Below are positions 7,454-60,190 of a stretch of 64,000 bases of DNA, one piece after another (position 1 is the stretch's first letter; each line of letters begins with the position of its first letter). Made by a program: the position numbers and the translations under genes. Origin of the DNA: Octopus vulgaris. Its lineage: Eukaryota. Below the pieces are notes generated by a model. The model was not told where the DNA came from. It worked only from the letters and a program-made list of their open reading frames with translations, and did not search any database. The stretch lies in the NCBI GenBank assembly GCA_951406725.2, contig OX597819.1, positions 85,002,001-85,066,000 of the forward strand. The letters are read 5' to 3'.

Positions 7454-7541
7454 ATCCAGGCTACATATGTTAGCGGAACCTTGGAAGTAGTAAATTATCC
7501 GAACAAGGGGTAGACCGTAAGTTATTCTTCAGGCCAAGGAT
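7454..7541 (-). ncRNA. Degenerate type I hammerhead-like motif with long domain II
   Basis: Minus strand: atcc-tt-ggc CTGAAGA ... GCTAA catatg TA gcc-t-ggat. Stem I pairs and stem III is palindromic (CATATG), but the GAAA box is non-canonical and stem II is weak. Confidence 0.4.
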
Positions 7542-7633
7542 ACCTTAATTATGTGAAGTTTACATTGTTGTTAGGAGATCCCATGTTAACTCATTGGGGA
7601 TTCGATCAAAATGCATTCTTTTGGGTATATATA

Positions 7634-8010
7634 CACTTGCGTCAGAAATTAATTAGCACTTCTCAAATTTCTACATTAAATAGGTTAAATCAATTAACCT
7701 ATGAGCTGTTCAAAACGTCTTACACGATGAGAAAACTTAGTATGGTGTGATTTCGGTCCTTGCGAGGCGCTACCTATATCTATTAAACAAAGGAAGATTT
7801 GTCTGCATCCGCACTCCAAGCTGTTGCACTGCTATGTCAACATCATAAGGCTGTAGACTCTCAAACTGCTCTGCAAACAAAGTTACGTCATCGTTCTGCG
7901 CAACAGTGAACTCGCAACAAAGCAATAGTTCGAGATATGGCCACTAGGTGACAGCACATACCTTGAGTGAAGAGCAAATTAAGGGTGCTAATTAATTTCT
8001 GACGGTAGTG
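7634..8010. mobile_element. Tc1/mariner-type MITE
   Basis: ~28-bp TIRs cacttgcgtcagaaattaattagcac / gtgctaattaatttctgacggtagtg, with TA on both flanks. Confidence 0.8.
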
Positions 8011-8569
8011 TATATATATACATGTGTGTGTGTATTGCCTTGCCTCAACATTGCATGCTGATTGTAAACAAACTTCACCATCATATAAGTGGTGTTTGTT
8101 TGCGACCTTTCATTGAAACCTCTCTGGATTAGGGCAAAGTATTACCTTGCCTGGAAACAGCTGAAGGTTGGTAACAGAAAGATTGTCTAGCCATAGAAAA
8201 TCTGTGTCACTGATTTTGTCTGAACCATGTAAGCATGGGTCAGATTTGCCTGTCTTTGTTTGGCAGGTAAGAAAGGCAGCAAAGATGGTTGTGACTATTT
8301 GGTCACTGCATGTACCACCCTGAACTGGAAGCATCCAAATTAGTCTTGTGGAATCCACTTCATAGTGACGTAAGAAGAAGAAAATGTTATCACACTTACA
8401 TTGACAACTTGATTGCAGACAGTGGCCTGGAGTGTATCCAGGACTTTGAGGCAGTGATGATGGACCGAGAAGTGTGAAAGGTAGTCTTTGTTGCTGCAGC
8501 TCAGGTTGGAACCTGGCCATAATAGTGATAATAAAATGTAATCATAGAAAAAGTGTTAAAATGCTGCCA

Positions 8570-9003
8570 CTGCCGCCACATTGGTGTGGGTGATAGTGCC
8601 ACATAAAATGCACTGGTGATGGTGCCATGTAAAAAGCACCCAATACACTCTATAAAGTGGTTGGTGTTAGGAAGGGCATCCAGCCGTAGAAACCATGCCA
8701 AAACAGAGTATGGAACCTAGTGTGGTTCCTGGCCTTGCCAATTTCCGTCAAACTGTCCAACCCTTGACAGCATAGAAAATGGACACTAAATGATGCTACT
8801 GCTGCTAATGATGACGATTTCTTCCTCAGTCCACTCTGCTGGGTGGTTGGTGTTAGGAAGGGCATCCAACTGTAAAAATCCTGTCAAAACAGACACAGAA
8901 GTCTAGTGTGGGCTTCTACCTGGCTGGCTCCTGTCAAACTGTCCCACCTATGCCAGCATGGAAGGCAAACGTTAAACAGTGATGGTGATGATGATGATGA
9001 TGA
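8570..9003 (+). mobile_element. Two tandem SINE family D 3' fragments
   Basis: The gtggttggtgttaggaagggcatcca motif occurs at about 8657 and 8843, each followed by a (GAT)n-like tail. Confidence 0.7.
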
Positions 9004-9387
9004 TCTTTCCACTCTCCATTTGCCAAATCTGCTCACAAAGCTTTGGTCGGCCCAGGGTTATAGTAAAAGACATTTGCTCTCGGTGCTATGCAGTGCTACT
9101 GAACCTAGGACTACATGGCTGAGAAACCAGCTCCTCAACCACACACACACACACACATATGTACACACACACACACAAATAGGTGCACTTACTAGTGTAC
9201 TTTTGCTGGGTAGTGATAGAAGAATACAGTTTGTGAGAATTATTAGTGTATAAAATGTAAATATCTATTCCAAGTAGCTTCTATAACATTATATCTTTTT
9301 TTTATTTGAATTCATAAAAAATGGAAAATATTATTTCATATGTTTATTAATAAAATTATGTAATATTGATCAATTCTTTCTTTTCAG

Positions 9388-9435
9388 ATTATTGATGATT
9401 TGATGGAAATCGACCATTTGAGCTCTCATTTCTAA
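9388..9435 (+). CDS. CPSF1: CPSF1 last coding exon
   Basis: Acceptor ttctttcttttcag|, phase 0. Translates IIDDLMEIDHLSSHF-stop, matching the I.DDL.E.D....HF C-terminus of CPSF1. Confidence 0.93.
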   Translation: MIDDLMEIDHLSSHF

Positions 9436-9712
9436 AGAGGCGTTGTTGTTGTTACTGTTTTCTTTCCTTTTTTTTTTTGTCATCTGTCATGATGGTGGTA
9501 TATTATAACAACTACAATAATGCTTCATCATCATTATTCAACTGACTTTATGGGTTTCTATGGCAGCTGGTGAAAGCTTGCAAGGATGATTACACACACA
9601 CACACACACACACACACCACACTTTACACAAAAGCACAAAAATACTCTTACCACAGTTTCTTACACATACGCAGTTATGGAACCACATAGATACATAACC
9701 AGTTATTCACTG

Positions 9713-9756
<44 letters not shown>

Positions 9757-9808
9757 TCTTATATAAAGTCACAATCAAATACATATGTACAGGTGTACAC
9801 ATATGTGA

Positions 9809-9867
<59 letters not shown>

Positions 9868-10364
9868 TGGTTTAAACATTCCATAGGGGCCCTAAATGTT
9901 TACACATGAATTGATTCATTAAATCATTTCCATCCATTGATATTTGTGTTGTATGTTTTTTTCCATTATAAACATATTTTCTTTCATTCTGTTTTTGTTT
10001 TGTCAAGCAAACCTAATTATTGTTATACGTTTGTCTTGGAGACTGGAGACTGACTTTTGCAGAAGTGAAAAAAAAAAAAAAAAAAAAAGAATGCTTTTCT
10101 CGAATTATTTAGATAGAAAACAAAATATTATGATAAAGAAGAGCTGTTATTGTTGTTGTTCTTTTTATTTAACTCTCAAAACAGTGAGCTGGCAAAACCG
10201 TTATAACTAAATGTTTAGTCTAGTGCATAATATGATAGTTGTTAATGTGAGAATCTCACCGTCATACTTCCCTGAAAATATATCTGGTGATGGGCAAACA
10301 AGTGAGGTTTTGATCACAGGGAGGGGCATCCACTTTCAGAAAATTTACTTCAGTGAAGCATACC

Positions 10365-10595
10365 TATTTCTTTACTACCCACAAGGGGCTAAATACAGAG
10401 TGGACAAACAAGGCCAGACAAACGGATTAAGTCGATTATATCGACCCCAGTGCATAACTGGTACTTATTTAATCGACCCCGAAAGGATGAAAGGCAAAGT
10501 TGACCTTGGTGGAATTTGCACTCAGAACGTAGCGGCAGATGAAACACCGCTAAGCATTTCACCCGGCGTTCTAACGTTTCTGCCAGCTCGCCGCC
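10365..10595 (-). mobile_element. tRNA-derived SINE family B (central domain resembling Deu/Nin-type SINEs)
   Basis: Reverse complement of ggcggcgagctggcagaaacgttag...gcctttcatcctttcggggtcgat-aaataagtaccag. Same family as 44615-45790 and 48371-48585. Confidence 0.8.
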
Positions 10596-11356
10596 TGTTG
10601 AAGCATACTTATGATCAAAGTTTTTGCAGTCACAACCATTCCATTTTCTGTTTTCTGACAAAGTGCATCCAGGATTATATTATTCAAATTACCATCCAAT
10701 TCTTAAGATAGCAGGATGTGATTTGGATGAGATTTAGCTGCTGTTTCTGGCATGTTAAATGATCACATAGAACAGTGTTGGAGAATTCTTTGTTTATGGG
10801 GTAAGGTTTGATACTTTACTATTATGAACACCCAATTTTTTTTTTTATCTACTAAATGATTAGTAAACGAACTACTAACTACTCACCTTAACCCTTTTTC
10901 TTCTCCATGAAGTAATGAAAGCTGTTCTGAAAGTCCACCGATGAACTTTTACACTCATCTCACAAGTGTTATAGTTTATCTACTAATCCTCTTAGTAAAT
11001 AAGAAAGTGCCTAAAATTTTTACCATCAGTGGGCAGGTAAATTGAAATTTCAGCTTCTCACTGACAAAGTCACTATAATCTCATTTGGAAAAAAAAATGA
11101 AGTGCAGGCATGGCTGTGTGGTAAGAAGAATCATGTGATATTGAGTTCAGTCTCACTGTGTACCATGTTGATCAAGTGTTTTCTTCTATAACCTTAGGTC
11201 AATCAAAGCCTTATAAGTAGATTTGGCTGACAGAAATTGAAAGGAGCCTAATGGAATTAAAAATTATTTTAATGCATTTGTGTACATTTAAACTAATTAA
11301 GTATTATTTTACAGAATAATAGAATTAGAATTTCTTTGATTAAAACCCTTTCTAAC

Positions 11357-11750
11357 ATGGAAGTATCCAAAGAGCATTTAAGGCACATAATGCTTTATGA
11401 GTACAAAAAAAAAAAAAAAAAAAAAAAAAACTCTGCCGCCAGTGCGACTTGAATCATACACTCAGTTTATGAGAAAGAATGCTTGACTGAAAGAACTTGC
11501 AGAAGATGGTTTGCAAAATTCAGAAGTGGAAATTTCAGCCTTGAAGATGAAGATCGAACAGGACATCCAATTGAGTTTGATGATAAACTCCTTGAGGCAT
11601 TACTTGAAGAAAATCCTGCATTATCAGTTGAAGAATTGGCAGTAAAGCTTAGTTCAAACCATACTACTACTGTTCATCGTCATTTTCAACAACTTGGAAA
11701 GGTTCCTAAACTTGAAAAATGGGTGCCTCATGAATTGTCTGAAAGCAACC
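11357..11750 (+). pseudogene. mariner (Mos1/SETMAR-like) transposase N-terminal fragment, frameshifted and truncated
   Basis: MEVSKEHLRHIMLYEYKK, then an expanded poly(A) with frameshift and stop, then TERTCRRWFAKFRSGNFSLEDEDRTGHP...LGKVPKLEKWVPHELSE. Contains the HTH region and the WVPHEL motif. Confidence 0.85.
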
Positions 11751-12926
11751 ACGATGGGACTGAACCCATAGCTTGAAGCCATGTAGTTGGGAAACAGTTT
11801 TCTTAATTACACAGCCATACCTGCACCTATACCAATAAAAATAGATCCCAACAGATCTTGGTACAATAAAGCAAAAACACAATGTAACAAAATTTTTTGC
11901 TTGTCTTTGGTCACTAAGTGTTACTTTCTAATTGCTTCTATTTAGAAATCAAAGACAATAACTACTGTTCCCTTCAGACTTTGCTTTTGTGACCTGGACA
12001 TCAATGTTTTGAAACTGATCTATTTTCCATTACATAGATTCATTGCTGAAGCAGAAATATCGTTATAGCAAATATTTTGCTCAATACTACAGATTTGTTT
12101 GTCAGGCGCTTGACCGTAACCATTTGAGCATGTCCCTTAGTGACTGACAATATGTACATCTCTGATCATGAGCAATTGTAGTGGAAGAGCATCATAGCCA
12201 TGTGTCGGGAGGGATTTTTAGGGGTTTGAAGAAAAGCAAAGTTGGAAGGAAATATTAGCCCTTTTTCATACTTTCTAGGGGTAAGCAAACAGGAAATAAC
12301 AGTTGCCATCCAAGGACAAAAATCGTGTTACGCAGTGTAAGTATACATATTGAAATGGAATAGCGGAAAATTTACAACAGTCAAATTACTTGTCCTTTGC
12401 TCCCTATGGAGCATAAGCCATTAACTACTTTTTTTCACTGTCCTTGACTCTGGGTTGTCTTTTCTATTTCTCTTCAGTTGGATCCCTGCTTTTTCAGCTC
12501 TGCCTCAATATCCCCACTCCAGCTATTTTTAGGGTGTCTTCTCTCCCGCCTTTCTTGTGGGTTCCGTGTCATGCTCTGACGTGTAATACATGCTCTGACG
12601 TGTTGCTTTCTTTCTTTTCGGATTTTGTTGCATCATATTATGTGTTTCCTCGAGGGAAGGCCATTGTCTTGTAGGTTTTGCTGGCTTTGAATTGTTACCG
12701 ATGTTTCTATAAATTTGCTTTCTTCAAGGTAGGAGTATTAACGAAATCTATTTTTACCTCTGGAAAGAAGTGGTCCATATAAGTCTGGTTTCTATCCTTT
12801 GACCTGATTAGCATGAGAAACCCTACCAGGAGCATGTGCTCCGCTGGCACAGCTTTTAGAGTCACTTAGGCACACAAGCCACTACACCACGACAAGATCT
12901 GGATCTTGTGATGGAACATCGAAGTA

Positions 12927-14436: not shown

Positions 14437-15369
14437 GGATCTTTTCCTTTTGAACGGCACATGTCAACATAATTTCTAGTTAACTAAACACTTTAAAACT
14501 TCGTATACTGGTAGAATGTGTCAAAATAAAACATTTTTTTCTCTTGGCTTTCTTGAGAAAATTGTAATTCGTTTGTTTAACGTAGTTTAATTTTTCGAAT
14601 TTTAACCAATGAATCGCCTCTAGTGAGCTCAAATCATTTGCTGCGTCTAAAACTGAGACAACATCCTGTCACTAACCCTAAACCTCACCCTTACCCTAAC
14701 CCTAAATTTTTTTTTCTTAATTGTTAAATTAATTTAATTGTTACGCGTGTAAGAAAAACGAAAGGCTAAAACGAAAGCAATGGAAAATAATTTAAACAAC
14801 AAACAAAATAATTCTATAATTTTATACATAATTCTATAATTTTATTAAAATACTGTTTGCGTGAGAACACATTAACTTTCTTGATTACTAAGGAAACAGC
14901 AACTGATGATATAAAACATCAGCTAGCGAAAACGAAATGGAGATTTAAAAAAAGATACTTGGTAGAAACATAAAATTACTTAGTAGAAAATTATAGAATT
15001 ATTTTGTTTCTTAATTGTTTAAATTATTTTCCATTGCTTTCGTTTTTATTTCTTAATTATTATCCTTAAATTAATTTAACAATTAAGGAAAAAGAAACGA
15101 AAGGCAAAAATTTAGGGTTAGAGTGAGGGTGAAGGTGAGGGTGTTGTCTCAGTTTTAGACGCAGCAAATGATTTTAGCTCAATTAGAAGCGATTCATTGG
15201 TTAAAATTCAAAAAATTAAACTACGTTAAACAAACGAATTACAATTTTCTCAAGAAAGCCAAGAGAAAAAAATATTTTATTTTGACACATTCTACCAGTA
15301 TACGAAGTTTTAAAGTGTTTAGTTAACTAGAAATTGTGTTGACATGTGCCTTTCAAAAGGAAAAGATCC
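14437..15369. mobile_element. Long-TIR MITE (GG termini, 8-bp TSD; Merlin- or hAT-like), nearly fully palindromic
   Basis: Starts ggatcttttccttttgaacggcac and ends gtgcctttcaaaaggaaaagatcc. Inverted arms are ~380 bp. Perfect TSD gaaaatga at 14429-14436 and 15370-15377. Internal taaccc/ttaggg-like repeats. Confidence 0.9.
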
Positions 15370-15460
15370 GAAAATGAACATGGTGTGAGTTTTCACATAA
15401 GTGGGGTCTGCAATTTAAAGGTCAAACGAACAATGATAGTTCTTAGCATTTTGCAAATAT

Positions 15461-15900: not shown

Positions 15901-16333
15901 AGATGTCTACATGGTTTTCTTTAATACAACCATGTTCTCTAAAGGAAGGTTGATTTGTGGTTGAAACTGCTGTGAAAATTGCAGACTAGACTGCAAAAAA
16001 TCTGTTGCTGTTCAGTCGTATAACTACTTTTTTTTTGTTTGTATTCTGTCAGTTTTGATATTATGTGCATACATGTGTACGTTTGTAAAGTCAACACTGA
16101 ATATGCTATAGATTCACTCGAGAGAAAAAGAAAATAATAAAACTACATGATTAAAATTGTTAATATGTGGAAATGATTAATTACGAGGAAAAAAATATGA
16201 CTTGTCTTTCTAGGAAGAATTAATGGAACAGAAAAACTGTTCGTGTTATCTGTTTTCATAAACCAATAATTACTTCCGTAATTCTACAATTCTTAATGTT
16301 TTTGTTCTTGAATTCTGTACAAGGATAGAAATA

Positions 16334-16483
16334 CATCATTTACATTATTTACAATTGACGAATATTTGTCCTCATCTTGCTTGTTATTAACACGTTTCGG
16401 CTGATATACCCACCAGCCTTCATCAGGTGTATTGGGGAAATTTCGAACCTGGGTTCTCATTCCTTTGGTATTTTTCGATGTTG

Positions 16484-16540
<57 letters not shown>

Positions 16541-16612
16541 TCACTGCCTGGAATCGAACTCGGAATCTTGGGGTTAGTAGCCCGCGCTCTTAACCACTAC
16601 GCCATATGCCAG
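16334..16612 (-). mobile_element. tRNA-headed SINE carrying a hammerhead-like motif
   Basis: Minus-strand head ggcatatggcgtagtggttaag...gagttcgattcc (A and B boxes), then (AAT)n, then acac CTGATGA a ggctg..cagcc GAAA cgtgtt. Flanked by the direct repeat ggatagaaata (16323-16333 and 16613-16623). Confidence 0.75.
16389..16431 (-). ncRNA. Type I hammerhead ribozyme motif (stem III and cleavage triplet apparently eroded)
   Basis: Intact CTGATGA and GAAA boxes, 5-bp stem II GGCTG/CAGCC and stem I ACAC/GTGT. There are too few bases between GAAA and the stem I 3' strand. Confidence 0.6.
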
Positions 16613-16704
16613 GGATAGAAATATTACATTTGTGGGTTTTTTTTTTTGTGTTCGAGTTACAGTGTGTAAGAGATAATGGTGGAATTGTGTTCCTATTGAC
16701 TTTT

Positions 16705-19590: not shown

Positions 19591-20134
19591 CAGTGTTTCT
19601 TAACTGGGGTCCATACGATACCTGGGAGGTCCATGTAAGATTTTGAGGAGCTCACGCACGCAAAATAGTAAATTTGGGATTTACAGTAGTATTTTAAGCG
19701 TTCAATGAAAATATTTTGCTTTAGATGTATTTGTTGCAAGAAGCAGCTAAGTTTCTTTCTCTAATGTTTTACATAGTTTAACCTGTTTCCGGCCACCGAT
19801 TCAAAAAAAGTTTCTATAAAACTATTTTTATAAACTAAAATTTAATTGCCAATGTAATATGGCTGCCCCGGAAGGGACGTTGTTACTGTTTATTAGGCCC
19901 AAGAAACATCGTTTCTAGCTGGCTATACGACACATTATCTGTATCCTTATATTTTCGAACCAGTAATTCAGCGTCCCCGCCCAGCACAAAACAACATCTG
20001 TGAACTAGTTTCAGGGTTATTGCTCTTCATTAACACAGAGTAGCTGCTTAAACATCGGATGGCTATGGGATTACACCAAAGTTAAATAGTAATCGAAGGG
20101 ATCATGGATAAAAAAAATGGGATGAAATCTACTG
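19591..20134. mobile_element. hAT-type MITE interrupted by a hammerhead-bearing insert (about 19840-20090)
   Basis: Starts cagtgtttcttaactgggg and ends atgggatgaaatctactg. The body is the reverse complement of 21333-21663. Confidence 0.65.
19997..20039 (-). ncRNA. Decayed minimal type I hammerhead ribozyme
   Basis: Minus strand: tctgtg TTAATGA agag-caataa-ccct GAAA ctag TT cacaga. Perfect 6-bp stem I, palindromic stem III (CTAG), and two transitions in the CUGANGA box. Confidence 0.65.
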
Positions 20135-21332: not shown

Positions 21333-21663
21333 CTGTGGTTCTCATCCATTATTTTACCCCTGGGCTCCTTTGATTACTGTTTTACCCTGGTGGACCACCA
21401 TGACCATCCGATGTTTAAAAGCTAGTTTTATAGAAACTTCTTACAAATTTCTTAATCGATGGCCAGAAACATGTTAAACTACATGAAACATTAGAGAAAG
21501 AAACCTAACTGTTTCTTGCGATAAATTCATCTAAAGCAAAATTTTTTCATAGACGTTTTAAATTGATGCTGTGGATCCGCAATTTATTATTTTCCTTGCG
21601 CGTACTTCTAAAAATCTTATCTGAATCCCCAGGAGTCATACGGACTCCGGTTGAGGACCACTG
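21333..21663. mobile_element. hAT-type MITE
   Basis: TIRs ctgtggttctca / tgaggaccactg, with degenerate 8-bp flanks gtttagtg / ttgtagtg. Confidence 0.65.
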
Positions 21664-25928: not shown

Positions 25929-26116
25929 ACACACACACACACACACTAACTAACTAACTAACACACACACACACATATGTATATATATATATATATATGT
26001 ATGTATATATATATATGTATGCATACACACACACACACATACACAAATACACACGCATATAAGAAACAAGTTAAAAATAATGGTCATTACATATAATTCC
26101 CTAATTAGACCAAATT

Positions 26117-26241
26117 TGGCTTACAGCTGTTTCCAGTAGTCATTATAGGTGCATTCCTGATAGGTTTACTCAATTGGTCTATTGATCAATTAAGGTAAAT
26201 TGAACGACCTAAGAAAATTAATGCTACTTTTGTCAGAGCCA
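26117..26241 (-). ncRNA. Type I hammerhead ribozyme with long (~95 nt) domain II
   Basis: Minus strand: tggct CTGACAA a agtag-catt...aatg-a-ctact g GAAA cagctg TA agcca. Perfect 5-bp stem I, 9 pairs at the base of stem II and palindromic stem III (CAGCTG). One G>A change (CpG-type) in the core. Confidence 0.7.
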
Positions 26242-26929
26242 TTGCTGGAAGAAACAAGCAGAGTATTTCTGTCTACAAAATCCACTCACAAGTCTTTTGG
26301 TCGGTCGGGGGCTATAGTAGAAGACACTAGTCCAAAATGCCAAACATTGGGACTGAAACTGGAACATATGTTTGGAAGCAAATTTCTTACCACATAACCA
26401 CGTTCGAAAAAGGTGGTGGTGGTGGGACTCCATTTTCACGTTACACAAGAAATTCAAATGCCTGAAGGTAGTTGTGTTGGTATTGATTTTTTGTTGGGTG
26501 ACCAAGTCTTTTTGTACTGGAATATATATTTTGCCATAAATTAAGCCTCTCTTCTTTTTGGATCTGAATAACAAAGAGTTAATGCTCCAGAGGTATTTGC
26601 TGTAGTTTGGCGATATCTTGATATTCGCTAGACATTGAGAGCAACAGAAGAAACAAAAACCGAATAAAACAAAGAAAAATCACGATCTGTCAACGAAACA
26701 ATAGTATTGAACCTTATGATTTATATATCTATTTTGAAAATCAACTTGTTTATACAAATATGCAAATTATATGGAAGTTGGAAGATATTAGGAATGTCTT
26801 TTAAGGAAACAGAATTTTTGATTTATGCTTATCAATTATATAATGCTACTCTATAACACTATTGACACTTTCCTAATGAATTTGTCGATTTAGCTTTACA
26901 TAGAAATTTTAAAATTTTATAGTAATATC

Positions 26930-32715: not shown

Positions 32716-32859
32716 CACCACATGGAATTAAGAAGCGGGCATTTTAAACTGGTCATGATGCATACGTGCATATATATATATGTATGTATACGTTCGTATA
32801 TGTAAGTATTCGTATGTTGTATTTATATATATATGTATTTATGTTTCTCTCTGCGTATA

Positions 32860-32916
32860 TTCCACTGATGAGGCAAAGTATTTCTAAATGCAAAGTCAGA
32901 AATCCGGGATCTGGAG
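32860..32916 (+). ncRNA. Type I hammerhead ribozyme, near-canonical
   Basis: ttcca CTGATGA ggc-aaa-gtattt-ct-aaatgc-aaa-gtc a GAAA tc-cgg-ga TC tggag. Stems I, II and III all pair, with predicted cleavage after AUC (32911) and one extra A before GAAA. Lies in a ~230-bp segment bounded by (TA)-rich tracts. Confidence 0.75.
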
Positions 32917-33559
32917 TTATCCAGTAATTTTTTACTAGTTTTATTTTGTCTTTTTGTATTCTCTCCTTGTGCTGTATGAAGACTTAAGGTGGTTTTAGAG
33001 TCAGATCCTGGCTGCTATTTTCAGCATGGCGGTATCTCGTAGATACCCTAAGTTATATATATATATATACATATAAAAATAAATTTTACATGTAAATTAC
33101 ATTTTAACAAAGCATCTTAATATGCATCCTATTTCAGACAACAAATAGGTAAGTTGAAAATAAAATTTTGTTTCAAGAACTTCGGAATTGTTGCATTTTT
33201 AAATACCATTTGTTCTAGCGTTTTTGTTTCATGTCTGGTGAATTACAACATTTAAATGTGATTTAACAAAGAACAAGAATGACAAACTAACTGAAAATGT
33301 CGCACCAATTGCTACTTTAAATCTCAAATTTCGAAATAAACTAACACTTAATAATATAAGGTTTCTTCGTTGAAAAACCAAGTTAGTGAGTATGTGATGG
33401 TGTTTCTGCGTGAGCATGTGTGGACTTAGTTTTCTTATCTAATATACTATGTTCTCTATGTTTGCAGGAATCCCCCATTCCCTTAAAACTTTGAAAATGT
33501 GTAGTTTTAACAGGCATTAATTTAAGTTATAGTTGAATCACAAATGTGAAAAACATGAG

Positions 33560-35280: not shown

Positions 35281-35736
35281 TTTTAGAAATATTAAATTTC
35301 TAAATATCTCGGAGAGATATGAGCGGTGGTGAAGCGATAGAGTGGTCGTATACTGTCAACTTAACATGACAGTCCCGTAAAGGGAATCACACACCGCTAT
35401 TTAGCCCTAGGAAGCATCAACGCTTCCTGTCGACTTTGATACATTTCCTCCGAGATATTTATAAATATATATATATATATATTTGCGAAGGTTTGGCAAA
35501 CATCTGAACTAGCGGGCCTTACTACCCAAGACTGATGACGAGCAAGACACAAAAACATGCATGTCTCTAGGTGCAGGCCCTAGCTGGTGGAGGTGCTTGT
35601 CTCCCCTTCGCAAATATAAGGACACAGGAAATGTGTCAAAGCCGACAGGAAGCGTCGATGCTTCCTAGGGCTAAATAGCGGCGGTGTGATTCCCTTTACG
35701 GGACTGTCACGTTAAGTTGACAGTATACAACCACTC
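35281..35736. mobile_element. Inverted-repeat element with a central hammerhead relic, inserted in the Gypsy protease
   Basis: Arms 35340-35449 and 35626-35736 are inverted copies, with an inner IR atatttgcgaagg/ccttcgcaaatat. Direct repeat catatgtgata at 35270-35280 and 35736-35746. Confidence 0.8.
35526..35571 (+). ncRNA. Decayed type I hammerhead ribozyme
   Basis: ccaaga CTGATGA cgag-caaga-caca AAAA catgcatg TC tctagg. Stem I has 5/6 pairs, stem III is palindromic and the triplet is GUC. GAAA is mutated and stem II eroded. Confidence 0.55.
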
Positions 35737-39471: not shown

Positions 39472-40267
39472 TAGTTTCATTTCTTTATACCAGTGCCAGT
39501 GCACCTCTAGCCTTATTGCTGTGCTGTCGGGAGTTTCCCCTTCATAAGTTGTGGTAGTGAGATGCAAGGAAGGTTGCCATACGCCTTACTGTGCAACATT
39601 TATGGAAACCAGACTTCTTGTCTCTGGATCATGACAAGAAGGTGAGGCGTTTCTGTGAGATGTTGTGCATGCCTTATTGAACTTAAAACTTCTGAATATG
39701 AATTGCTGAATTTAGCCCGCAGGGGACACAAGTAGCTAGCCATCATCATCAAGTATGTTTGCAAATCTTTATGTCTGCCAACATCTACGTATGAATAATG
39801 TGTAGGTGTGCATGACGCGCACCCGCAACTATGCACAAATATGAGAAGTTAGCGACATCGAATTTTTGAAAAAAGATAGAAATAAATTGATATAATATAA
39901 TATAATATAATATATATTATATATATATATACACATACATATGTACATACATGTGTGTATGTGTGCTTAAATATACTATATATATTTATACATACACACA
40001 TGGGCATACACACATACACACTAAATATCAGATATAAATATAATTAAAAATCTCTCTTTCCTTCTCCCAGCTCTATCTCTGCATACATATATGTGCATAA
40101 GCTTTATTTTTTTCATGACTCGAGATTCTTGTAGCTGTAATCTTCGGGCAAGATCACAGGGCCGTGAAACTCAAGTAGCAAGAACAAGAAATTTAGCTTA
40201 AATAAATAAATGAATAAATACTACATGTACTCAGTACTCATTTCCTCTTTCGCTGACATTTCTGTGC

Positions 40268-40319
<52 letters not shown>

Positions 40320-41622
40320 CTCCCGTCAACACCCGTTAAAAGGAGGGCTGGGCATGCCGTGGTTGATGATGCGCAGACACGCGCTGAGACTGCGGCATCT
40401 CTGGCTCTATGTAGACGACGGTGAACAGGTGTGGTCGCCGTTTGTGAGGCACGCTTTCCCGCAGCTCGTCTCCATGACCGAACTGCAGTCGTGGATCAAA
40501 AAGAGGCCGAGGAAGGGCGAATGGCACCGCGAGTGTCGCGTTGCTCTCAAGCAACTCTGCCGTCCTGGGTCGACCTTAAGTGACTTCAACACAACCAAAG
40601 CATTCTATAGGGGTTTAGTGGAGGGGAGGTACGACGACGAACTCGGGGCGAACCTGGACGTCGACGAGGAGTACCTGACCCGCCTGTTCAGGACGACCTT
40701 CGGGCCAGGGCCCATGGACAACTTCCAGAGATCCCTGGCCTGGCAGTGCTACCGAGAAGCGCTACCCGTTCGGGATAAGCTCTACAGACACGGCTCGAGA
40801 AACACGGGGCCGACCTGCCCGAGATGCGGTCAGAGCGACGAAACCGTTCTGCACGCACTCGTTCAGTGCCCAACAATTTCCGACCTGTGGGCTTATGTCG
40901 AACAACTGCTGTCACGTGTGGGACGAGTCGGTTTATCAGCTGAGTCTATCGTCAATATTGTCACGCCTCCTTCCTTCAAACGGGAAGGAAGAGCTATTTT
41001 CATCATCCTTGTGGCTATGGCGAAAGAATGTATCTGGTGGACGCGTCTGAAAGGATTGGAGACAAACACTTTCCTCTCTGGTCAATCTCTCATCAACTTC
41101 TTCAAGTACCACTTGAAAAGGAAAGTGAGAGTAGAGAGGCAAGTTTTGTCTAGCGAATGTTTTAAAAAAAGATGGGTGAATGTAGCAAGAATGGCACGTA
41201 TGAATGACGAAGCCACCTTGAGCATAGTCCTATGAACCCAGAAATCGAAAACAGAGAGTTGCTTATTTGCAAAAAAAAAAAAAAAAAAAAAAAGAAATAT
41301 AAAATGTGACTTCATTGACCGAGGTTACCGTGGTCTTTTCCGTAGGCTTTTCTTTCCACGGGTAAACCTCACCTGTCCTCCCCTTTACACTTCATATTGA
41401 CATTTCTGTGATAACGATCCCTATTGATCAATTTTTTTTTCCTCTCCCCCTTTTTTTTAACCCCCTTTTTTTGTCCTCTTTCTCTCCTTTTACGATCCCT
41501 TTTGATCGAAACTCCCCCTTCCTTTTTTTTTTTTTTTTTTTTTTTTTTAAACCTTCAAAAGAAAAGCTCTACCTTGTAATTTGTTCTATCTGTGTGCAGC
41601 CCTGTGTGGCTAATAAAGAAAC
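40320..41622 (+). mobile_element. 5'-truncated L1/Tx1-type LINE: ORF2 C-terminus with zf-RVT, plus 3' UTR, inserted in (CTAT)n
   Basis: Uninterrupted frame from HPLKGGLGMP to CPRCGQSDETVLHALVQCP..W and K..IWWTR, stop at 41235. GC-rich relative to the flanks, ends taataaagaaac, and has (TATC)n on both sides. Confidence 0.85.
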
Positions 41623-43485: not shown

Positions 43486-43873
43486 TATTACATTATATAA
43501 AAGGGCTTAGTAAAATAAATTACTTTGCCACATACTGAACTCATTAGAAATAGTAGCTAAAAAAACTTTTTAAAAACTATTTCTAATACTTAAAGAAAAT
43601 CTCTCTCATATAGTGTTTGCTCAATTCAACTCACGAAAGTATGGGGGTAAAGACATTAAAAAATCAAATGCAATGGTTCTCAAATAACCTTTGCATTTGA
43701 TTTTTTAATGTCTTTACCCCCATACTTTCGTGAGTTGAATTGAGCAAACACTATATGAGAGAGATTTTCTTTAAGTATTAGAAATAGTTTTAAAAAAGTT
43801 TTTTTAGCTACTATTTCTAATGAGTTCAGTATGTGGCAAAGTAATTTATTTTACTAAGCCCTTTTATATAATG

Positions 43874-43878
<5 letters not shown>
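43486..43878. repeat. Near-perfect palindrome, 188-bp arms with a 17-nt spacer, embedded between (TA)n tracts
   Basis: 43486-43673 is the reverse complement of 43691-43878, with one mismatch seen. Confidence 0.95.
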
Positions 43879-44614: not shown

Positions 44615-45790
44615 GGCGGCGAGCTGGCAGAAACATTAGCACGCTGGGCGAAATGCTTAGCGGTATTTCGTTTGCCGAGGTCGACTTTGCCTTTCATCCT
44701 TTCGGGGTCGATTAAATAAGTACCATTTACGCACTGGGGTCGATATAATCGACTTAATCCGTTTATCTGTCCTTGTTTGTGCCCTCTGTGTTTAGCCCCT
44801 TGTGGGTAGTAAAGAAATAGGTATTTCGTTTGCCGTTACGTTCTGAGTTCAAATTCTGCCGAGGTCGACTTTGCATTTCATCCTTTCGGGGTCGATAAAT
44901 TAAGTGCCAGTTACGCACTGGGGTCGATATAATCGACTTAATCCGTTTGTCTGTCCTTGTTTGTCGTCTCTGTGTTTAGCCCCTTGCGGGGAGTAAAAAA
45001 ATAGGTATTTCGTCTGTCGCTACGTTCTGAGTTAAAATTCCGCCGAGTTCGACTTTACCTTTCATCCTTTCGGGGTCGATAAATTAAGTACCAGTTACGC
45101 ACTGGGGTCGATATAATCGACTTAATCCGTTTGTCTGTCCTTGTTTGTCGTCTCTGTGTTTAGCCCCTTGGAGGGAGTAAAAAAAATAGGTATTTCGTCT
45201 GTCGCTACGTTCTGAGTTCAAATTCCGACTTTACCTTTCATCCTTTCGGGGTCGATAAATTAAGTACCTGTTGCGTACTGGGGTAGATCTAATCGACCGG
45301 TCCCCTCCCCAAGAATTTCGGGCCTTGTGACTTGAGTAGAAAATAATATTTTAAATTAATTGGGCGGTAAGCTGGCAGAATCGTTACAGTGCCGGACAAA
45401 ATGTTTGGTACCATTGCTTCTGACGTTCTGTGTTCAAATCCTGCAGAGGTTGACTTTGTCTTTCATCCTTTCGGGGTTAATGAAATAAGTACCAGTTGAG
45501 CACTTGGGTTGATGTAATCGACTTACCTTCTATTTCGAAATTGTTGACCATGTGCTAAAATTTGAAGCCAATATTTTAAATTAATTTGGTGGCAAGCTGG
45601 CAGAATTGTTACTGCACCGGACAAAATGCTTTGCAGCATTTCTTCCATCGTTCTAAGTTCAAATTCCGCCGGGCTTTACTTCGTCATTTGTCCTTTGGGG
45701 GTCAATAAAATAAGTGCCAGTGGAGCACTGGGATCGATGTAATCGACTTGCTCCCCCTTTCAAAAACTGATGACCTCGAACCCTGCATCA
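44615..45790 (+). mobile_element. Tandem array of SINE family B (four ~185-bp head-to-tail units plus two older copies)
   Basis: ggtatttcgt-tg-cg...ctttcatcctttcggggtcgat..tagccccttg..aaata repeats from about 44662, 44820, 45004 and 45189. Separate degenerate copies start at about 45362 and 45590. Confidence 0.85.
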
Positions 45791-51935: not shown

Positions 51936-54900
51936 AAAGAGTTATAATATCAATCTTATTTCGTTGACATCTTAAGGAAATATTATTTGTATTAGTCCCC
52001 ATGAATATTGATTTCAAATGTTGACACAAGGCTAGCAAGTTCGCGGGTGGGTGCAAGTCGATCACATCGACCCTAGTGTCCTACAGGTACTTATTTTATC
52101 GGCCTCGAAACGATGAAAAGCAAAGTCAACGTCAGCGGAATTTGAACCCAGAACGTAAAGACGGACGAAATGTCGCAAAGTATTTTTAACAATTCTGGCA
52201 GCACATCGCCTTAGGCCTCGTGAATATTAATAAATAATTATTTTGCCCATTATGAGATTATTTTGTGGATATATTTCATTCATGAAAAAAATTTAGGTTT
52301 TCCATATAAAAAATCATAAATCGATATCACGGTAATTTGGTGTGGAGGTGGATATGTCTGTAGGTAAAATATAAGGTTTAATCTAAGATACGTTTTTTTT
52401 TACAGCATTACTATGCTGACATATAATTAGACCAAACAGAGCGTTTGCTTTAAATTTTAAAAATCTACGTTCATGGAGGTCCGTATAACTTCAAACTGTT
52501 GTTGTTGTTGATGCGTAGATCCAAAGCAGTATGAGTGAAAGGATCTGAGATTAAAGTAATTCCAGCCATGACTATCTTGTCTTCTTCTGTATCTAGAACT
52601 ACATTGACTAATATATTCTTCTATTTGGAAGAAATTTAGTTGCTTTTTCTGGCATGTCGAGCGACGGTGTAAACAAAATGAAACGGTTGGGCGTTGGTGT
52701 TTGGACGATGGCGATCTCGCACAGTGGAATGGACATTGAACAAGATTTGGAGTTGTTTTCTTTTCTTTGGTGACAGTACTTTCTGTTACTGGAGGTAAAC
52801 ACAAACACACACACACAAACCGTGCACGCATAGAAATACACACACACAGATAGAAACAGAGAGAGAAACATTACTATTTATTAATTGAAAAGCATTTCTG
52901 TGTTTCATCAATATTTCACTTACCATCATATAATAAAGTGACGCAGAAAGTTAAGCGAAGTTTTCTAGTTGAATAGTTGTGATTACAAGTTAATTATCGA
53001 CTAGAATAAAAACAAAATTTTCACTCAAAAGGCCTCAGGGACATTGCGTCCGATGTCAAATAAGTCAGCTTCAAATCAGCAACGCCGAGTAGGTGGGCGC
53101 CCGAACAGCTTCGCCAGAACATCTCACAAACCTGCATTAAAGCTATTTCGTTGAATGGAAAACTTTGAAATAATGTTTATCTATGCAGTCATATTGAGTT
53201 AAATATTTACACTCTTAAAATGAAAATCTTGTAGATTGCTTGATCAGCAGCTGATTTATTTTGCTTTATATTTTACTGAAGTAAAAATTACTACTTCATG
53301 AAAATTATCTCCTCAGTTAAACACTATTGTTAACAGTAGCATTACTATATGCGGAGCAACTGATCTTAATGGGGTGATATCCATAGCTTGTTTTGAGATT
53401 TTAAACACCCCAAGAGAGAAATTTAGTCTACAAATTGCTTGGATAATCTCAGTTGATAGAAAGTTTTCATTTTCCAACCCGGTATTGTATGTATTACTGC
53501 ATTAAGTATGTAAAAATATCCTGGTGAAATTTGCATTTAGCTTGCAGAATGCTACCCAGAAGAATATTCTCTTAACCATATTGTTGATTTAGGGAAATTT
53601 ACTTTGTTGTATTAGTTTTAGAATAATATTATTTCAATTTAACGATCGGAAAAGTGATATATAGCTAAAAGCTATAAAATCTTAGATAAATCGGTATAAT
53701 GTAAACAAACTTATTAAATAATTTAAAGACGCTAGAATGTTAGAACCAAATTGTTTCATTATCAGAGAGACAAATATATTTACGCATACACATACGCACA
53801 TACATTTCCAATATATCACGAATTTCGTCTAGTTTCATTCTTATTTGTCAGTTTCGTTTATTATCTTATATTTCTTATTTTCTTTTCTCTCTCAAGAATT
53901 TGAAACATCAGTTCATGTAATCATTAAATTGAAAATCGTTGCAAAACTTCAATGAAATATGTTTATGTTATCATAACTGTCAACGTTCAGTAAAACAAAA
54001 ACACGACGTTTAAGATGTATATTAATAAGTTAGTAAAAGATACAGATGCGCAGAGACAACGAGCCATCAAAAAAATAGACATCCTAACAATCTGCTTAAA
54101 TAATATATGTTACTTCCAACAGTTCATAAATACAGGCTGAATAATGTTCATGCAGAGAAAAGTAATATATTAAAAAAATATTGTATTCCATTTTTTAAAA
54201 ACTTCCTTTTCTTCTCTTTGATTAAGTTTTGTCATATTGATTTATAAAATTCCCAAGAATTATTCGTCTCTATCATTTGGGGGTGATTTAATACTTTTAT
54301 TTATATACGATTATATTAGTACGGTACAAGTAGTTTTATATACACTAGGCCTTCTTAAACTTTTCCAATCACATCCCTCTCTTTTCAAAAAGAAATTTGT
54401 TGTGATCCCCCTCCGTTTGGTCATTTGGGCTTTTCCTTGCTTGAGATACCTCGCATATTTTCATTAAAATCGGTCATTTTCAATGTTTCTACAAAAGACC
54501 AGACGTTTAAAAATCTGCTTTAGAAAACAGTTGACAAAATTCTTGTTTTTTTTGAGGACACGCCACTCCTGAATTAATTTCTTCTTCATTTAGGAATAGT
54601 CTTAAAGTAGGCACCAATTATTCTATGACTGGAACTAAATTGTTAATTTTTTTTTCATTCAGAAATGGGAGACTTAGAGTAAAAAAAATTATTCACGTAC
54701 ATTTAGTAAAAATATATACGTTGTTTGTTTTCTTTTTAACATAAAATAATTAAGTAATTTATTTTTATGTTAAGAATTCAGATAAATAAAAATCAGGAGT
54801 AGCTATTGAATAAAAAAAATCAAATTCAAAATCAACGTTGTTAATATCAATATACAAGTTTAAAGTTTAATGTTTTAAGTTTAAAAAGTACAAAAATATA

Positions 54901-57094
54901 AAAATCATTTCAAAAGTAACATTTCTTCCGAAAAAAAGAATCAAATTAAAAATTAGAGTTAATGTCACTTTCAAATTTTGGCACAAGACCAGCAATTTCG
55001 CAAGTTGGTCGATTACTTTACCTCCAGTGCTCAACTGGTACGTATTTTATGCAAACAAGAATTTCTAATTTCTCAATTATTTTGTAAAGGTAAAGTAAAC
55101 TGGCATTGCAAATACGGCTCATTATGTTTCCTCTGTTTGGCTCGGGATTATTTCGTATTCATAGGGTTGCTACTTGCAAATTCGGGATACTCCATGAAGT
55201 TTATGACACTTCAGTTAAATTATTTTAAACACAATAGTCTATAAAAGGGATTTTTTCCTGGACAGAAATTGCAGCTTTTGGCGTTTCAACTACACACATA
55301 CATTAACTACATTATATTCATAAAGCTTTTACTACAGAGCTGCTTCTATAGCATACTTCAAATTTTATTTTGCTTATGTTCTGTCATTGTATACCAATGT
55401 ATAGCTAATACGCTATTCCTAAATACTTTATACAAGGTCTTTTGTTTCTGAAGTGACATGAGTGCGTGACATTGAAAAGTCGCAACAACGGCGATTTACA
55501 TATATGTCACTCTCGTGGCCATTCCTGGGTCGATTTCGTTTCGCCTAGCTCTGAAGTATATTATTTTTGTAGCATAATTTCCAGATGGAAATCACAGTTT
55601 CTCGTGTTTCAACTACGTACTTGCTTTATATTGATAGAGTTTTTACTATAGAGCTGCTTCAATTACATAATTCAAATATTATCATCAACATTTTCTGTGG
55701 TTATATAATTTGCTGAGTGCAACCACTTATAAATGGGCAAGATATTTTGTCTTACACCTGAAAAAAAAAAAAAAAATGAAAGTTGCTGTGACCATTTTTG
55801 AGCTAATCACAATGATACGGTAAAGGAACTGATTTCGAGTCCTCAAAGTTCGAAGTTAACATTTTTAGTTTCGTAAGGTAGGCAAGAGAAATATTATGTT
55901 TTATCGATTTTTCGAAAACTGCACTTTTAAAAATACGCTTATTGCCACAGGTTATTTTTATAGCAAAAAGCAAAAAGCTCCATGTAGTTTGTATTGTGAC
56001 GTATGGTTTCGAAAAATCCTGTTCATTATTTCGCAGCTTATAATGGGAAAATATAATTTCACCTCGAGTTATTGTAGCTAAAAATCAATGAGATATTGTG
56101 CTATCAATCCATTTTTGTACAAAATAATTCATTTAGAATAATTTTATACAAAATTTGATACGAAAAAATTTGTTTTGATACGAATAATTTTTAATACTAA
56201 TTATTTATCAGTTTCTGAAAGATGCATATTTTTTATCCAATTTAAATAGTTCTAAAATTAAATTCTAAAACAACCAAGTTTCTTCACTCCTATCACGAAA
56301 AAAACACCCAAAAAACAAAACGATAATAAGCGTATAACGTTAACGTGTTTTCCTATCTCGTTTCACTAAATTTTACACAGTAGAAGTTCACGTCACGTTT
56401 TGCACTTTTTTATTGAAAGAAGTAACTGCAAGCGGCTTCATGTGCTATATTTATCAACAATTTCATCTGAGGGCATGATGCAAAAACCTGAAATTAATTT
56501 GCAAATTAAAATAACTTGCGATAAAAATCGAGTAGAATAAATTTAGATATTGTAGTAAAAATGGTACTTTCTGTTTTCTGAAATCATTTGGAGGCATGAT
56601 GTCGCTATGTCTGTTCCACTATCACGTGGAATAAAAATTAAAATAAGGAATGTTATGTCATTATATTGAGATAGCAAATATTTTCTGCATGGTTATTATT
56701 AAATTTTAAAACTGTGGATTTGTTTTTAGAGTTATAATCACAGTTTTGCATGAAAAATTACAACAGCCTGCAAATAATGATGCTAAAGGTAGAAAAAAAT
56801 TCTCTTCTGTACTCGCGACTTCGCTGAACTTTTATGCGACGAACCACAAGAGGGCCTGTTGTACACAAATGATTTCTTAACTTCTGTAGCAAATCTTTTC
56901 TAGGAATGAATTCTACATTCCCGAATACCTCTTCGAGATTCGTTGTTTGTAACCAGCAATACATACATTCAGTATTATAAAACTGCAAGCATGAATCATT
57001 TATGCAGGTTAGCAGACACGCCTTCCAACATTTATTTTGGCCAACCACTTCTCGCAGTGACTGAATGAGCTACACTAGTATGTGAATCCACCTC

Positions 57095-57352
57095 TGATAC
57101 GTGGCACTTGGTCAACAAGGGAGTTCGATGCCGCTGCCCGCATCTATGTCTCCTGCCGAGAGGTAGGTTCATCTGGGACCCCTGACAAGAAGAGATCCAC
57201 ACCATGCAAATCTCTCAGGCATTTAGGGAGGATGTTGAAGAGCTGTGGTCCTCTGAAACCCAAGCTGTTGCAGTATCTGGTCCTGTATTTTGATGGTGAT
57301 ATTGAAATATTTGGCACCATGCAGTGGTGCCTCGTTCTGCGGTTGAGGTAAC
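57095..57352 (-). mobile_element. LINE 3'-end fragment (CR1/L2-like ORF2 C-terminus)
   Basis: RTRHHCMVP...[38 protein letters not shown] resembles the NS...RGP.LFN.LP..LR....LD.FL...PD.P LINE tail. Confidence 0.6.
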
Positions 57353-57438
57353 TTTGAATGCCAATATATATATCTATATCAACATACACACATATATAAA
57401 TATAAAATATATACATATTTATGCACATATGTATGTAC

Positions 57439-57493
<55 letters not shown>

Positions 57494-57796
57494 CATACAT
57501 ACATGCATACGTATCTATTCCTGTGGTTGCTCGTAAGGCGTTCACAAACAGAATAAAGCATAGAAAATTTCACGAAGTAGTTTATGTAGGCGACTTGTTT
57601 GCAGAGTTAATCTTTTATTGATTCTTGTTGACCATGTTCACAAACAATTAAATGAATACATACATGCATACATATGTACGTACATATTTAATATAATCTG
57701 CATAATAACTCCATAACGGTCATTTCAAAGTTCCTGTTCGGCTATCAGCTACTATATGCCACCATACAGCTGAATTACTCATTTTACTGGATATAT

Positions 57797-58028
57797 ACGA
57801 GGAATGAACAGGCTTTAATCACAAATCACAACAATGTTAGTTGCTTATTTTTCCACATCATAATATTGCATAAAATATTATATAAATATATATGATCCAG
57901 CAACAGCTGTGTACCGACAGGCCATCAGGCGAGTGGCTTTAAAACAACTAAAACTCAGCAACTAACAGCTGTTACCAATGCACAGAAACGATTGTTGTGA
58001 TTTGTAATTAATGCCTGTTCATCTCATC

Positions 58029-58032
<4 letters not shown>
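57797..58032. mobile_element. Probable mariner-type MITE
   Basis: Inverted repeats atgaacaggctttaatcacaaatcacaacaat / attgttgtgatttgtaattaatgcctgttcat in TA context. Confidence 0.55.
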
Positions 58033-58093
<61 letters not shown>

Positions 58094-58347
58094 GTAAATA
58101 TATAGAAGTAAATATATGGCACAACGAAGTACCGATATTTACTGGAAAATATGTATAATTTTCCCTCACGGGCTATTCTTTACTGGAAAGCAATACTCTC
58201 GTATTGCATTACTATATATATATATTTATATATATATATATATATATATTGATAAAACGGTAAGATAACAAAAGAAAGAAAGAGACCTCAATATTATGTA
58301 AATAGAGGAAATTTATCTATACAATATGTTACATTACTCGGTAGTCA

Positions 58348-58410
58348 AGATAAAACTCTGAGTTTCAGATGCCGAAGTGGAAATCCACAACACCATCTCT
58401 TCGGTTATCT
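58348..58410 (-). ncRNA. Type I hammerhead ribozyme variant in the PLE 3' region (pLTR)
   Basis: Minus strand: agataa CCGAAGA gatg..gtgg-attt-ccac..catc t GAAA ctc-a-gag TT ttatct. Perfect 6-bp stem I, extended stem II, near-palindromic stem III and a GUU triplet. Position U4 is C. Lies ~185 nt downstream of the endonuclease stop, on the same strand. Confidence 0.75.
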
Positions 58411-58594
58411 GGCTATTTGAAAACGTTGTGAAAAAATACCGTTAAAAATGAAGGGAAATTACTCTGTTATAACTCTGCTTTGCCTGCGTACTTATACATC
58501 GCTCGCATTTTTCGTCATAAAAATTATATAAAAATACATAAAAATATATAAAAATATATAAAATCTTCTTGGGACATAACACAGAAAGCATGTT

Positions 58595-59279
58595 CTATCC
58601 GTTTTCTTTAGGGGACCAAAAACGTAACAGAAATTTAGTCACATGTGGGCATGATCCGAAAAGCTCTGTCCTTGTATTTAGACATGTGGTAGGGTCTAAG
58701 CTGCTTTTCCAGATAAGCCATCTCTCCATGTCGCATAAACCGCACCTTCCGCTGCCGTTAGTGTAGGGCTTACATCTGGCCAAAATCTTCCATTGTATGT
58801 TATAATCGACACCTTTATCTCTTAAAGACCAAATATGATTGGATAATTGTGTCGCTTTTCTTTTGTTCCAGTGCCTAAAGCTCAAAGTGTGGTTATTGAA
58901 CCTGGCCTTGAAATTACCCTCTGTCAGGCCCACGTATTTCTTCGTCGAAACGGTGTCTTTAGTGGTTATAGAGTTTACGGTAGCTTCATATATGATGGTC
59001 TTGGACATGCAAGCTCCATTTAGCGGGCACAATTCTTTATTCCTGCATGAACAGCTGTTTTCTTCTTGTGTTTTTTGTATGTTATGATTGATTATGTTTT
59101 TAAAATTGGTAGTTGAACTAAAACTAATTTTTAAATTGTGTCTATTGAAGAGTTTCCTATAAGCATGGTTAACTGGAAAATGTCTATCTATCAGTGCTAG
59201 GAAATATTTACCTATATTGAAGGCCACCTCGGGTGAGTAAGGGGGCGTAAACCAGATGACCTTCCTATTTCTATTTCTA
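58595..59279 (-). CDS. PLE GIY-YIG endonuclease (C-terminal domain of the RT-EN ORF, 5'-truncated; frame intact in the left arm)
   Basis: RNRKVIWFTPPYS...CSCRNKELCPLNGAC..IIYEATV...KKYVGLTEGNFKARFNNH...LSNHIW...CGLCDMER. Shows GIY/YIG-like motifs, the catalytic-type R and E, and the Cys-rich linker typical of Penelope-like elements. Confidence 0.88.
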
Positions 59280-59945
59280 AAGGTCATCTGGTTTACGCCC
59301 TTACTCACCCGAGGTGGCCTTCAATATAGGTAAATATTTCCTAGCACTGATAGATAGACATTTTCCAGTTAACCATGCTTATAGGAAACTCTTCAATAGA
59401 CACAATTTAAAAATTAGTTTTAGTTCAACTACCAATTTTAAAAACATAATCAATCATAACATACAAAAAACACAAGAAGAAACAGCTGTTCATGCAGGAA
59501 TAAAGAATTGTGCCCGCTAAATGGAGCTTGCATGTCCAAGACCATCATATATGAAGCTACCGTAAACTCTATAACCATTAAAGACAACGTTTCGACGAAG
59601 AAATACGTGGGCCTGACAGAGGGTAATTTCAAGGCCAGGTTCAATAACCACACTTTGAGCTTTAGGCACTGGAACAAAAGAAAAGCGACACAATTATCCA
59701 ATCATATTTGGTCTTTAAGAGATAAAGGTGTCGATTATAACATACAATGGAAGATTTTGGCCAGATGTAAGCCCTACACTAACGGCAGCGGAAGGTGCGG
59801 TTTATGCGACATGGAGAGATGGCTTATCTGGAAAAGCAGCTTAGACCCTACCACATGTCTAAATACAAGGACAGAGCTTTTCGGATCATGCCCACATGTG
59901 ACTAAATTTCTGTTACGTTTTTGGTCCCCTAAAGAAAACGGATAG
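59280..59945 (+). pseudogene. Inverted second copy of the PLE GIY-YIG region with two frameshifts
   Basis: Same sequence as the left arm, with a 2-bp deletion at about 59300 and a 1-bp deletion at about 59480 that split it into ORFs 59314-59520 and 59508-59945. Confidence 0.88.
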
Positions 59946-60190
59946 AACATGCTTTCTGTGTTATGTCCCAAGAAGATTTTATATATTTTTATATATTTTT
60001 ATGTATTTTTATATAATTTTTATGACGAAAAATGCGAGCGATGTATAAGTACGCAGGCAAAGCAGAGTTATAACAGAGTAGTTTCCCTTCATTTTTAACG
60101 GTATTTTTTCATAACGTTTTCAAATAGCCAGATAACCGAAGAGATGGTGTTGTGGATTTCCACTTCGGCATCTGAAACTCAGAGTAACAT

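Follow-up and report, generated by a model that had tools for sequence, protein, structure and literature searches.

The stretch of DNA considered here, 64,000 nucleotides of Octopus vulgaris contig OX597819.1 (positions 85,002,001-85,066,000, hereafter the window), lies within a source genome of 2.8 Gb, against which all family searches were run. It carries eight hammerhead ribozyme motifs, labelled by their start as M1 (7454), M2 (16389), M3 (19997), M4 (26117), M5 (32860), M6 (35526), M7 (58348) and a twin (60130), and direct inspection found all eight, together with six palindromic stems III, where a first-pass annotation had placed them. M7, probably M1 and possibly M4 belong to the terminal repeats of Penelope-like elements (PLEs), while M2, M3, M5 and M6 lie in small elements without an open reading frame (ORF) (Table 1). 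Loci fetched from the source genome are given L-numbers where they need to be told apart.

Table 1. Hammerhead-bearing elements of the window and their parts (pLTR, pseudo-long terminal repeat; coordinates are those of the window)
Feature	Coordinates	Strand	Remarks
M1, solo pLTR-type copy	7221..7611	-	hammerhead 7454-7541, GAAA deleted here
M2 candidate target-site duplication	16320..16333	-	partner 16610-16623, 14 nt, 1 mismatch
M2, whole copy of tRNA-headed minimal-hammerhead element	16334..16610	-	
M2 minimal hammerhead	16389..16431	-	minority variant without the cleavage-site nucleotides
M2 (AAT)n linker	16489..16536	-	
M2 tRNA-derived head	16537..16610	-	A-box-like 16594-16604, B-box-like 16550-16559
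M3, 5'-truncated copy of ~350 nt ORF-less monomer	19836..20050	-	hammerhead 19997-20039, family U3 plus G5A here
M4	26061..26264	-	hammerhead 26117-26241, long stem II, G8A
M5, partial copy of ~495 nt ORF-less monomer	32719..33055	+	core-intact hammerhead 32859-32917
M6 inverted partial copy, upstream	35340..35449	-	94% identical to 35626-35736
M6, partial copy of ~353 nt ORF-less monomer	35482..35736	+	hammerhead 35526-35571, G12A
M7, 5'-truncated Hydra-type PLE	58250..59320	-	endonuclease ORF 58595-59320; pLTR hammerhead 58348-58410
Inverted PLE copy	59460..60198	+	part of the ORF, 59460-59945; internally deleted hammerhead remnant, 60130-60185

One may ask whether such motifs are merely chance matches in AT-rich DNA, and a loose type I descriptor with palindromic stem III does return a mean of 4.72 matches per shuffled window (25 dinucleotide shuffles), compared with 10 in the window itself. 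With at most one core mismatch, however, there were three window matches (M4, M5 and M7) and none in any of the shuffles, and with at most two mismatches five, as opposed to a shuffle mean of 0.48 (maximum 2); the strict descriptor gave one match against a mean of 0.04, a value equalled by one shuffle in 25. M1, M2, M6 and the twin are too damaged to match the tight descriptors. The motifs are thus in excess over chance (three vs none), and since the family majorities are also nearer to the hammerhead consensus than the window copies are, chance is already refuted for all seven families and retains next to no probability. What did not survive is the claim that the window copies keep the CUGANGA/GAAA/UH core, which is intact in only two of the seven, M5 and M7, the latter being counted as intact with a C at position 4 that is family-wide. 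M1 has lost 8 nt, GAAA among them, and M2 the 3 nt bearing the cleavage site; the core changes of M3, M4 and M6 are given in Table 1, and M6 has a broken stem II as well. The twin, described earlier as truncated, is indeed a damaged copy, but not by simple truncation, as an internal deletion of about 24 nt takes the 3' strand of its stem I. A possible ninth, decayed hammerhead lies at 60430-60530 (minus strand), with an 8-bp stem I, a 6-bp stem II, a perfect 6-nt palindrome and two core mismatches; it resembles two motifs in L127, yet is single-copy in the searches made. A descriptor match at 63873-63974 (minus strand), single-copy in the searches made, was treated as chance.

Each of the seven motifs is a member of a dispersed repeat family, with first-look candidates numbering 2251 for M1, 4278 for M2, 1111 for M3, 1603 for M4, 2140 for M5 and 2015 for M6. 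For these six families 40 candidates each were scored, and the alignments comprise the 19 best other copies (eight for M7). The losses of the window copies are made good in the majority lines (GAAA in M1 and M6, G5 in M3 and G8 in M4), and the core was intact in 10 of 19 other copies of M1, 9 of 19 of M3, 8 of 19 of M4, 14 of 19 of M5, 11 of 19 of M6 and seven of eight of M7, allowing U3 in M3 and C4 in M7. As the M2 query was itself the variant lacking the cleavage site, no more than five of the 19 M2 copies in the alignment were intact. Intact consensus cores, as had been expected, are therefore present in the majorities of M1, M4, M5 and M6 and in the major variant of M2, with one fixed core variant each in M3 and M7. 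The family majorities likewise confirm a common type I topology beneath sequence-diverse helices, with three stems closed by stem I and a palindromic stem III; M1 has a stem I of 3 bp plus a bulged extension, and in both M1 and M4 stem II is very long. Stem covariation is seen in part: of 18 M6 copies that were parsed, 2 have a compensatory change in stem II. By computed energies the stem III palindromes self-dimerize at -4.8 to -13.3 kcal/mol and form no hairpin. Exact copies numbered 3,761 for intact M2, 3,703 for M7 and 31 for M6, while reversed-pattern controls were all zero. A distant relationship links M3 with M6 (87% identity over 31 nt), and no similarity was found between any other pair among the seven.

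The M7 hammerhead lies 3' of the endonuclease ORF on the same strand, and the region 58346-60194 forms an inverted pair. All 150 genome matches scored for this endonuclease (out of 22,175 candidates) were 100% identical, and L205 holds a complete PLE in which a 708-aa (amino acid) ORF, starting from Met, lies between hammerheads 2,578 nt apart. As read from the ORF and its flanks, M7 has RWK, DKT, CxCX5C, CxxC and CxH, lacks the CCHH cysteines and is flanked by (TA)n; searches of Pfam and PDB with the PLE ORF gave no match. Read in this way, M7 is the pLTR of an autonomous, young Hydra-type PLE, its clade being assigned by motif description and not by a tree. The exact motif copies of M7 include subfamilies with another loop II, the pattern fixing the conserved parts, and a different base at the free position 7 is seen in 7 of the 36 strings of the motif. 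In one of 20 loci (L099), a decayed PLE endonuclease ORF immediately precedes M1, which has no permuted or tandem small-monomer period in those 20 and is probably a PLE end as well. M4 has neither an ORF nor a tandem period in 20 loci, save for one local 938-nt duplication, and is possibly a PLE terminal repeat; compared with shuffles, the folding z of M1 and M4 is -0.4 and +1.4, respectively. The earlier assertion that the families are non-autonomous thus finds support for the ORF-less M2, M3, M5 and M6, but not for M7, which sits in an autonomous PLE, for M1, which is joined to a PLE endonuclease ORF in that one locus, or for M4. A second young PLE family, with 781-aa frames and a U3 hammerhead-like motif 3' of the ORF, was seen in L258, L262, L276, L277, L282 and L283; by its motifs it is Neptune-like.

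The elements carrying M3, M5 and M6 are of a different kind, for in all three, what precedes the hammerhead matches what follows it, with a constant period of about 350, 496 and 353 nt, respectively. The M6 period was seen in 20 of 20 loci, two M6 hammerheads stand in tandem in L039, and the window copy of M3 has an empty-site paralog at about 21349-21500. The three monomers fold far better than their shuffles (z from -4.1 to -7.7, 40 shuffles), which M1, M2, M4 and M7 do not. Judged by these periods and computed folds, M3, M5 and M6 are circularly permuted, strongly self-paired monomers of the type of retrozymes that lack long terminal repeats (non-LTR retrozymes). A simpler account would have all seven motifs be 5'-truncated pLTR debris of autonomous PLEs, with no separate non-autonomous families, and most single motifs are viewed as truncated PLEs in PMC4209133. 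This account holds for M7 and probably for M1, and M4, too, is without a tandem period. In M3, M5 and M6, however, the recurrence of the element's own 3' part every 350-496 nt leaves no room for an ORF, and M2 begins with a tRNA-like head and forms 215-nt arrays, so that for these four it is already contradicted, barring a PLE with an identical full-monomer pLTR. As an explanation of all seven motifs we therefore find it improbable.

M2 consists of a 74-nt head, an (AAT)n linker, a spacer, the minimal hammerhead, a 3' part and an optional tail of about 30 nt. The head, which the first-pass annotation overlooked, aligned best to tRNA-Arg(TCG) with a z of 8.2 (30 of 34 genome tRNA matches, few isotypes being sampled); it was not called a tRNA by Rfam or ARAGORN, and the Rfam scans returned no tRNA, nor did ARAGORN find any gene in the window. 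The head junction has 2,008 exact copies in the source genome, and in 30 head loci the body follows directly in 19, after an insertion in four, and is missing within 1.5 kb in seven. TTTT is absent from 11 of 11 copies, which is compatible with transcription by RNA polymerase III (Pol III) and no more than that. The arrays repeat a unit of about 215 nt that lacks the head, as witnessed by 33 tail-to-linker vs 0 tail-to-head junctions, and it is thus not the case that every tandem unit has a promoter head; L144 contains an array of nine units, and L250 and L251 have the form head-(unit)n. Of 29 head-bearing copies, 19 have an inverted copy immediately upstream, some of them forming the halves of a single insertion, and 7 carry the tail. 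With a folding z of about -1, M2 is not strongly folded.

In view of the (AAT)n, one might suppose that the ORF-less families are moved by some other retroelement, such as, for M2, a long interspersed nuclear element (LINE) of the (AAT)n-targeting Dong/R4 type. LINE-like ORFs do occur after or within the M2 linker in 6 of 30 head loci, and no PLE partner was found in the loci examined (L001-L144 and 30 GIY-YIG loci). Yet the ends of M2 copies fall at the tail or some 30 nt short of it, and no (AAT)n 3' tail follows; the LINE-like pieces (Dong/R4-like, in L023, L143, L223, L226, L230, L231, L233 and L236) sit inside the linker as later insertions. Moreover, inverted 5' copies and optional 3' tails have been described as traits of PLEs (PMC8557442), and another retroelement, such as a LINE, as the driver is, in our view, improbable. 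We put at about even the chance that M2 is instead a Penelope-driven short interspersed nuclear element (SINE), in which a 215-nt minimal-hammerhead retrozyme unit acquired a tRNA-Arg-like Pol III head at its front and was multiplied into thousands of copies by the machinery of PLEs, not of LINEs. Cleavage by the hammerhead would then free a head-less unit, accounting for arrays made of one promoter and repeated units. Fourteen sequencing runs presumed to be RNA contain 38-45% of M2 words, and in contigs from 4 of 24 runs the head and linker are skipped, with no back-joint, which, as these are contigs only, is evidence neither way. Half or more of the M2 words (window 16330-16615) are present in runs of five organisms, and M2 is therefore common to related species.

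Altogether, it was correctly anticipated that several high-copy, sequence-diverse hammerhead families exist, and M2, M3, M5 and M6, which have no ORF, show partial-tandem and inverted arrangements of the PLE type. We consider it likely, from these sequence comparisons, that the motifs are mostly decayed type I hammerheads of seven families, some being terminal repeats of PLEs (M7, M1, possibly M4) and four being small elements with no ORF (M2, M3, M5, M6) that are probably copied in trans by PLE reverse transcriptase/endonuclease; hammerhead cutting is predicted in all families. Several observations nevertheless weigh against this. Neither tblastn of loci L001-L144 nor 30 of 148 GIY-YIG matches yielded an autonomous PLE that has sequence in common with M2-M6. 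Target-site duplications of M2 are not established, being 10 nt or longer in one of 10 non-inverted copies and in 2 of 90 mismatched pairs. Rfam called no hammerhead among 108 window matches or among 68 matches in nine loci, its matches being driven by microsatellites only. The M2 variant without the cleavage site has 454 exact copies (control 0). The G10.1-C11.1 pair is absent from the base of stem II in M1, M3, M4 and M6, and M5 and M7, which both have a G-C pair, carry an extra base 3' of stem II. The M3 family combines U3 with G8, and the M7 family has C4, which reduces hammerhead activity in vitro (PMC3088659). Minimum free energy (MFE) folds of the M4, M5 and M7 monomers bury the core. 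Finally, substitution rates of core and flanks are about equal in M3 (0.067 vs 0.080), M4 (0.077 vs 0.075) and M5 (0.024 vs 0.029), whose cores are hardly better kept than their flanks, but in M1, M6 and M7 the core changes more slowly than the flanks. Inserted copies thus mostly decay freely.

Some of these points would also fit a hammerhead fold that is kept for a non-cutting role, such as protein binding or RNA dimerization, or that is a non-functional passenger in most families. The atypical cores and the MFE folds that sequester them, the cleavage-less M2 copies, which include most of one array, and the low in vitro activity of this hammerhead class (PMC4209133) all go in that direction. 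Against it, there are about eight copies of the intact M2 variant for each one without the cleavage site, and UH and the boxes are kept by all seven family majorities or major variants despite unrelated helices. We therefore regard such a non-cutting or passenger fold as rather unlikely and prefer self-cleaving hammerheads, for which the following sequence of events may be envisaged on the basis of PMC4209133, PMC7229834 and the review PMC6765202. A multimeric transcript, arising by read-through or, for M2, from the Pol III head, would bring two hammerheads together, and their stem III palindromes would pair into a double hammerhead that slowly cuts to unit length. The unit may be circularized, and PLE proteins would reverse-transcribe it for more than one full turn and insert it, yielding partial tandems, inversions and tails. 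Once inserted, copies would decay, largely without selection.

The closest published counterparts are the minimal and small-palindromic-helix-III hammerheads in the pLTRs of metazoan PLEs (PMC4209133), which share with the motifs described here the type I topology, the palindromic stem III and the many divergent families per genome, as well as the predominance of single decayed copies and the opposite-strand pairs. Intact M2 is the minimal form of that paper, with an extra base between 9 and 10.1 and the G10.1-C11.1 pair. In contrast, the other families depart from the published forms in having the extra base 3' of stem II (M5 and M7), no G10.1-C11.1 (M1, M3, M4 and M6), a very long stem II (M1 and M4) and a U3 that is combined with G8 and not with A8 (M3). 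M7 agrees with Hydra-clade PLEs (PMC8557442) in RWK, DKT, CxCX5C, CxxC, CxH, the missing CCHH, a 2.6 kb unit, the (TA)n flanks and the pLTR hammerheads, and differs by its C4 core and by its copy number (at least 3,703 motif copies), as that paper found few families outside cnidarians. With metazoan non-LTR retrozymes (PMC7229834; bioRxiv 10.64898/2026.07.22.740005) the ORF-less elements share monomers of 215-353 nt with type I hammerheads, tandem or monomeric, strong self-pairing (M3 and M6) and co-existence with PLEs. Unlike those retrozymes, they occur mostly as dispersed partial tandems with inverted copies and bear PLE-variant rather than canonical hammerheads; M5, with its 495 nt, lies above the range of 170-400 nt, and strong folding is not seen in M2. 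The SINE-like SM-alpha and Sj-alpha retroposons of Schistosoma (PMC6765202, PMC8490949) resemble M2 in that a type I hammerhead comes after a Pol III-type promoter and that copies are both dispersed and in tandem, whereas in M2 the head is outside the repeated unit, the hammerhead is the PLE minimal form, and inversions and tails are of the PLE type.

With respect to density, the descriptor allowing at most one mismatch found eight matches in 333,789 bp of other source-genome flanks, one of which stands in tandem next to the query family, and near-intact motifs thus occur about once per 45 kb; the chance control for this figure is the shuffles of the window. The figure of one motif per 10 kb put forward earlier applies only to this window and with decayed copies counted. 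The seven families turn up 15 times among loci retrieved for other families (about 0.6-0.7 Mb each), and additional type I hammerheads with other palindromic stems III are found in the 800-nt flanks of L067, L079, L098 and L127, which suggests more families than the seven; the L098 motif resembles M3. As for annotation, a squid genome paper lists 235 Rfam hammerheads (PMC6962438), and the available part of a cephalopod repeat annotation makes no mention of ribozymes (PMC13282606). Because the motifs described here escape Rfam, unannotated copies in genomes of this kind may number in the tens of thousands, by rough extrapolation from the flank density.

The window also contains other features. 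Two short exon-like frames (4102-4269 and 6631-6792, plus strand), the second without a Pfam match, resemble the C-terminus of CPSF1. A mariner transposase fragment with HTH_48 (11453-11776) and a LINE 3' fragment with zf-RVT (40210-41235) lie on the plus strand. There are also two near-perfect inverted repeats, possibly miniature inverted-repeat transposable elements or further PLE-type inversions (43486-43878, 193 nt at 99% with a 7-nt gap; 14437-15369, 186 nt at 97%), tandem SINE-like units of about 184 nt (44639-45731) and a recent 368-nt duplication (2666-3333).

PLE hammerheads, non-LTR retrozymes and the Pol III hammerhead SINEs of Schistosoma have already been published, and the class as such is not new. 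A tRNA-headed, hammerhead-bearing element with PLE-type insertions was not found described in the open literature, that is, outside Repbase, Dfam and subscription journals; the supplements of the cited papers may list related mollusc families. A PLE origin of non-LTR retrozymes has been proposed (bioRxiv 10.64898/2026.07.22.740005), and the enzyme that mobilizes animal retrozymes, left open in PMC7229834, has been approached in the same preprint through co-occurrence and phylogeny. Here, the ORF-less families bear PLE insertion signatures directly, beside a young intact PLE. The part most worth following is M2, which couples a SINE promoter to the PLE/retrozyme system: if M2 is truly a Penelope-driven SINE, its presence in the same genome as a young, intact Hydra-type PLE would offer a direct test of PLE trans-mobilization.

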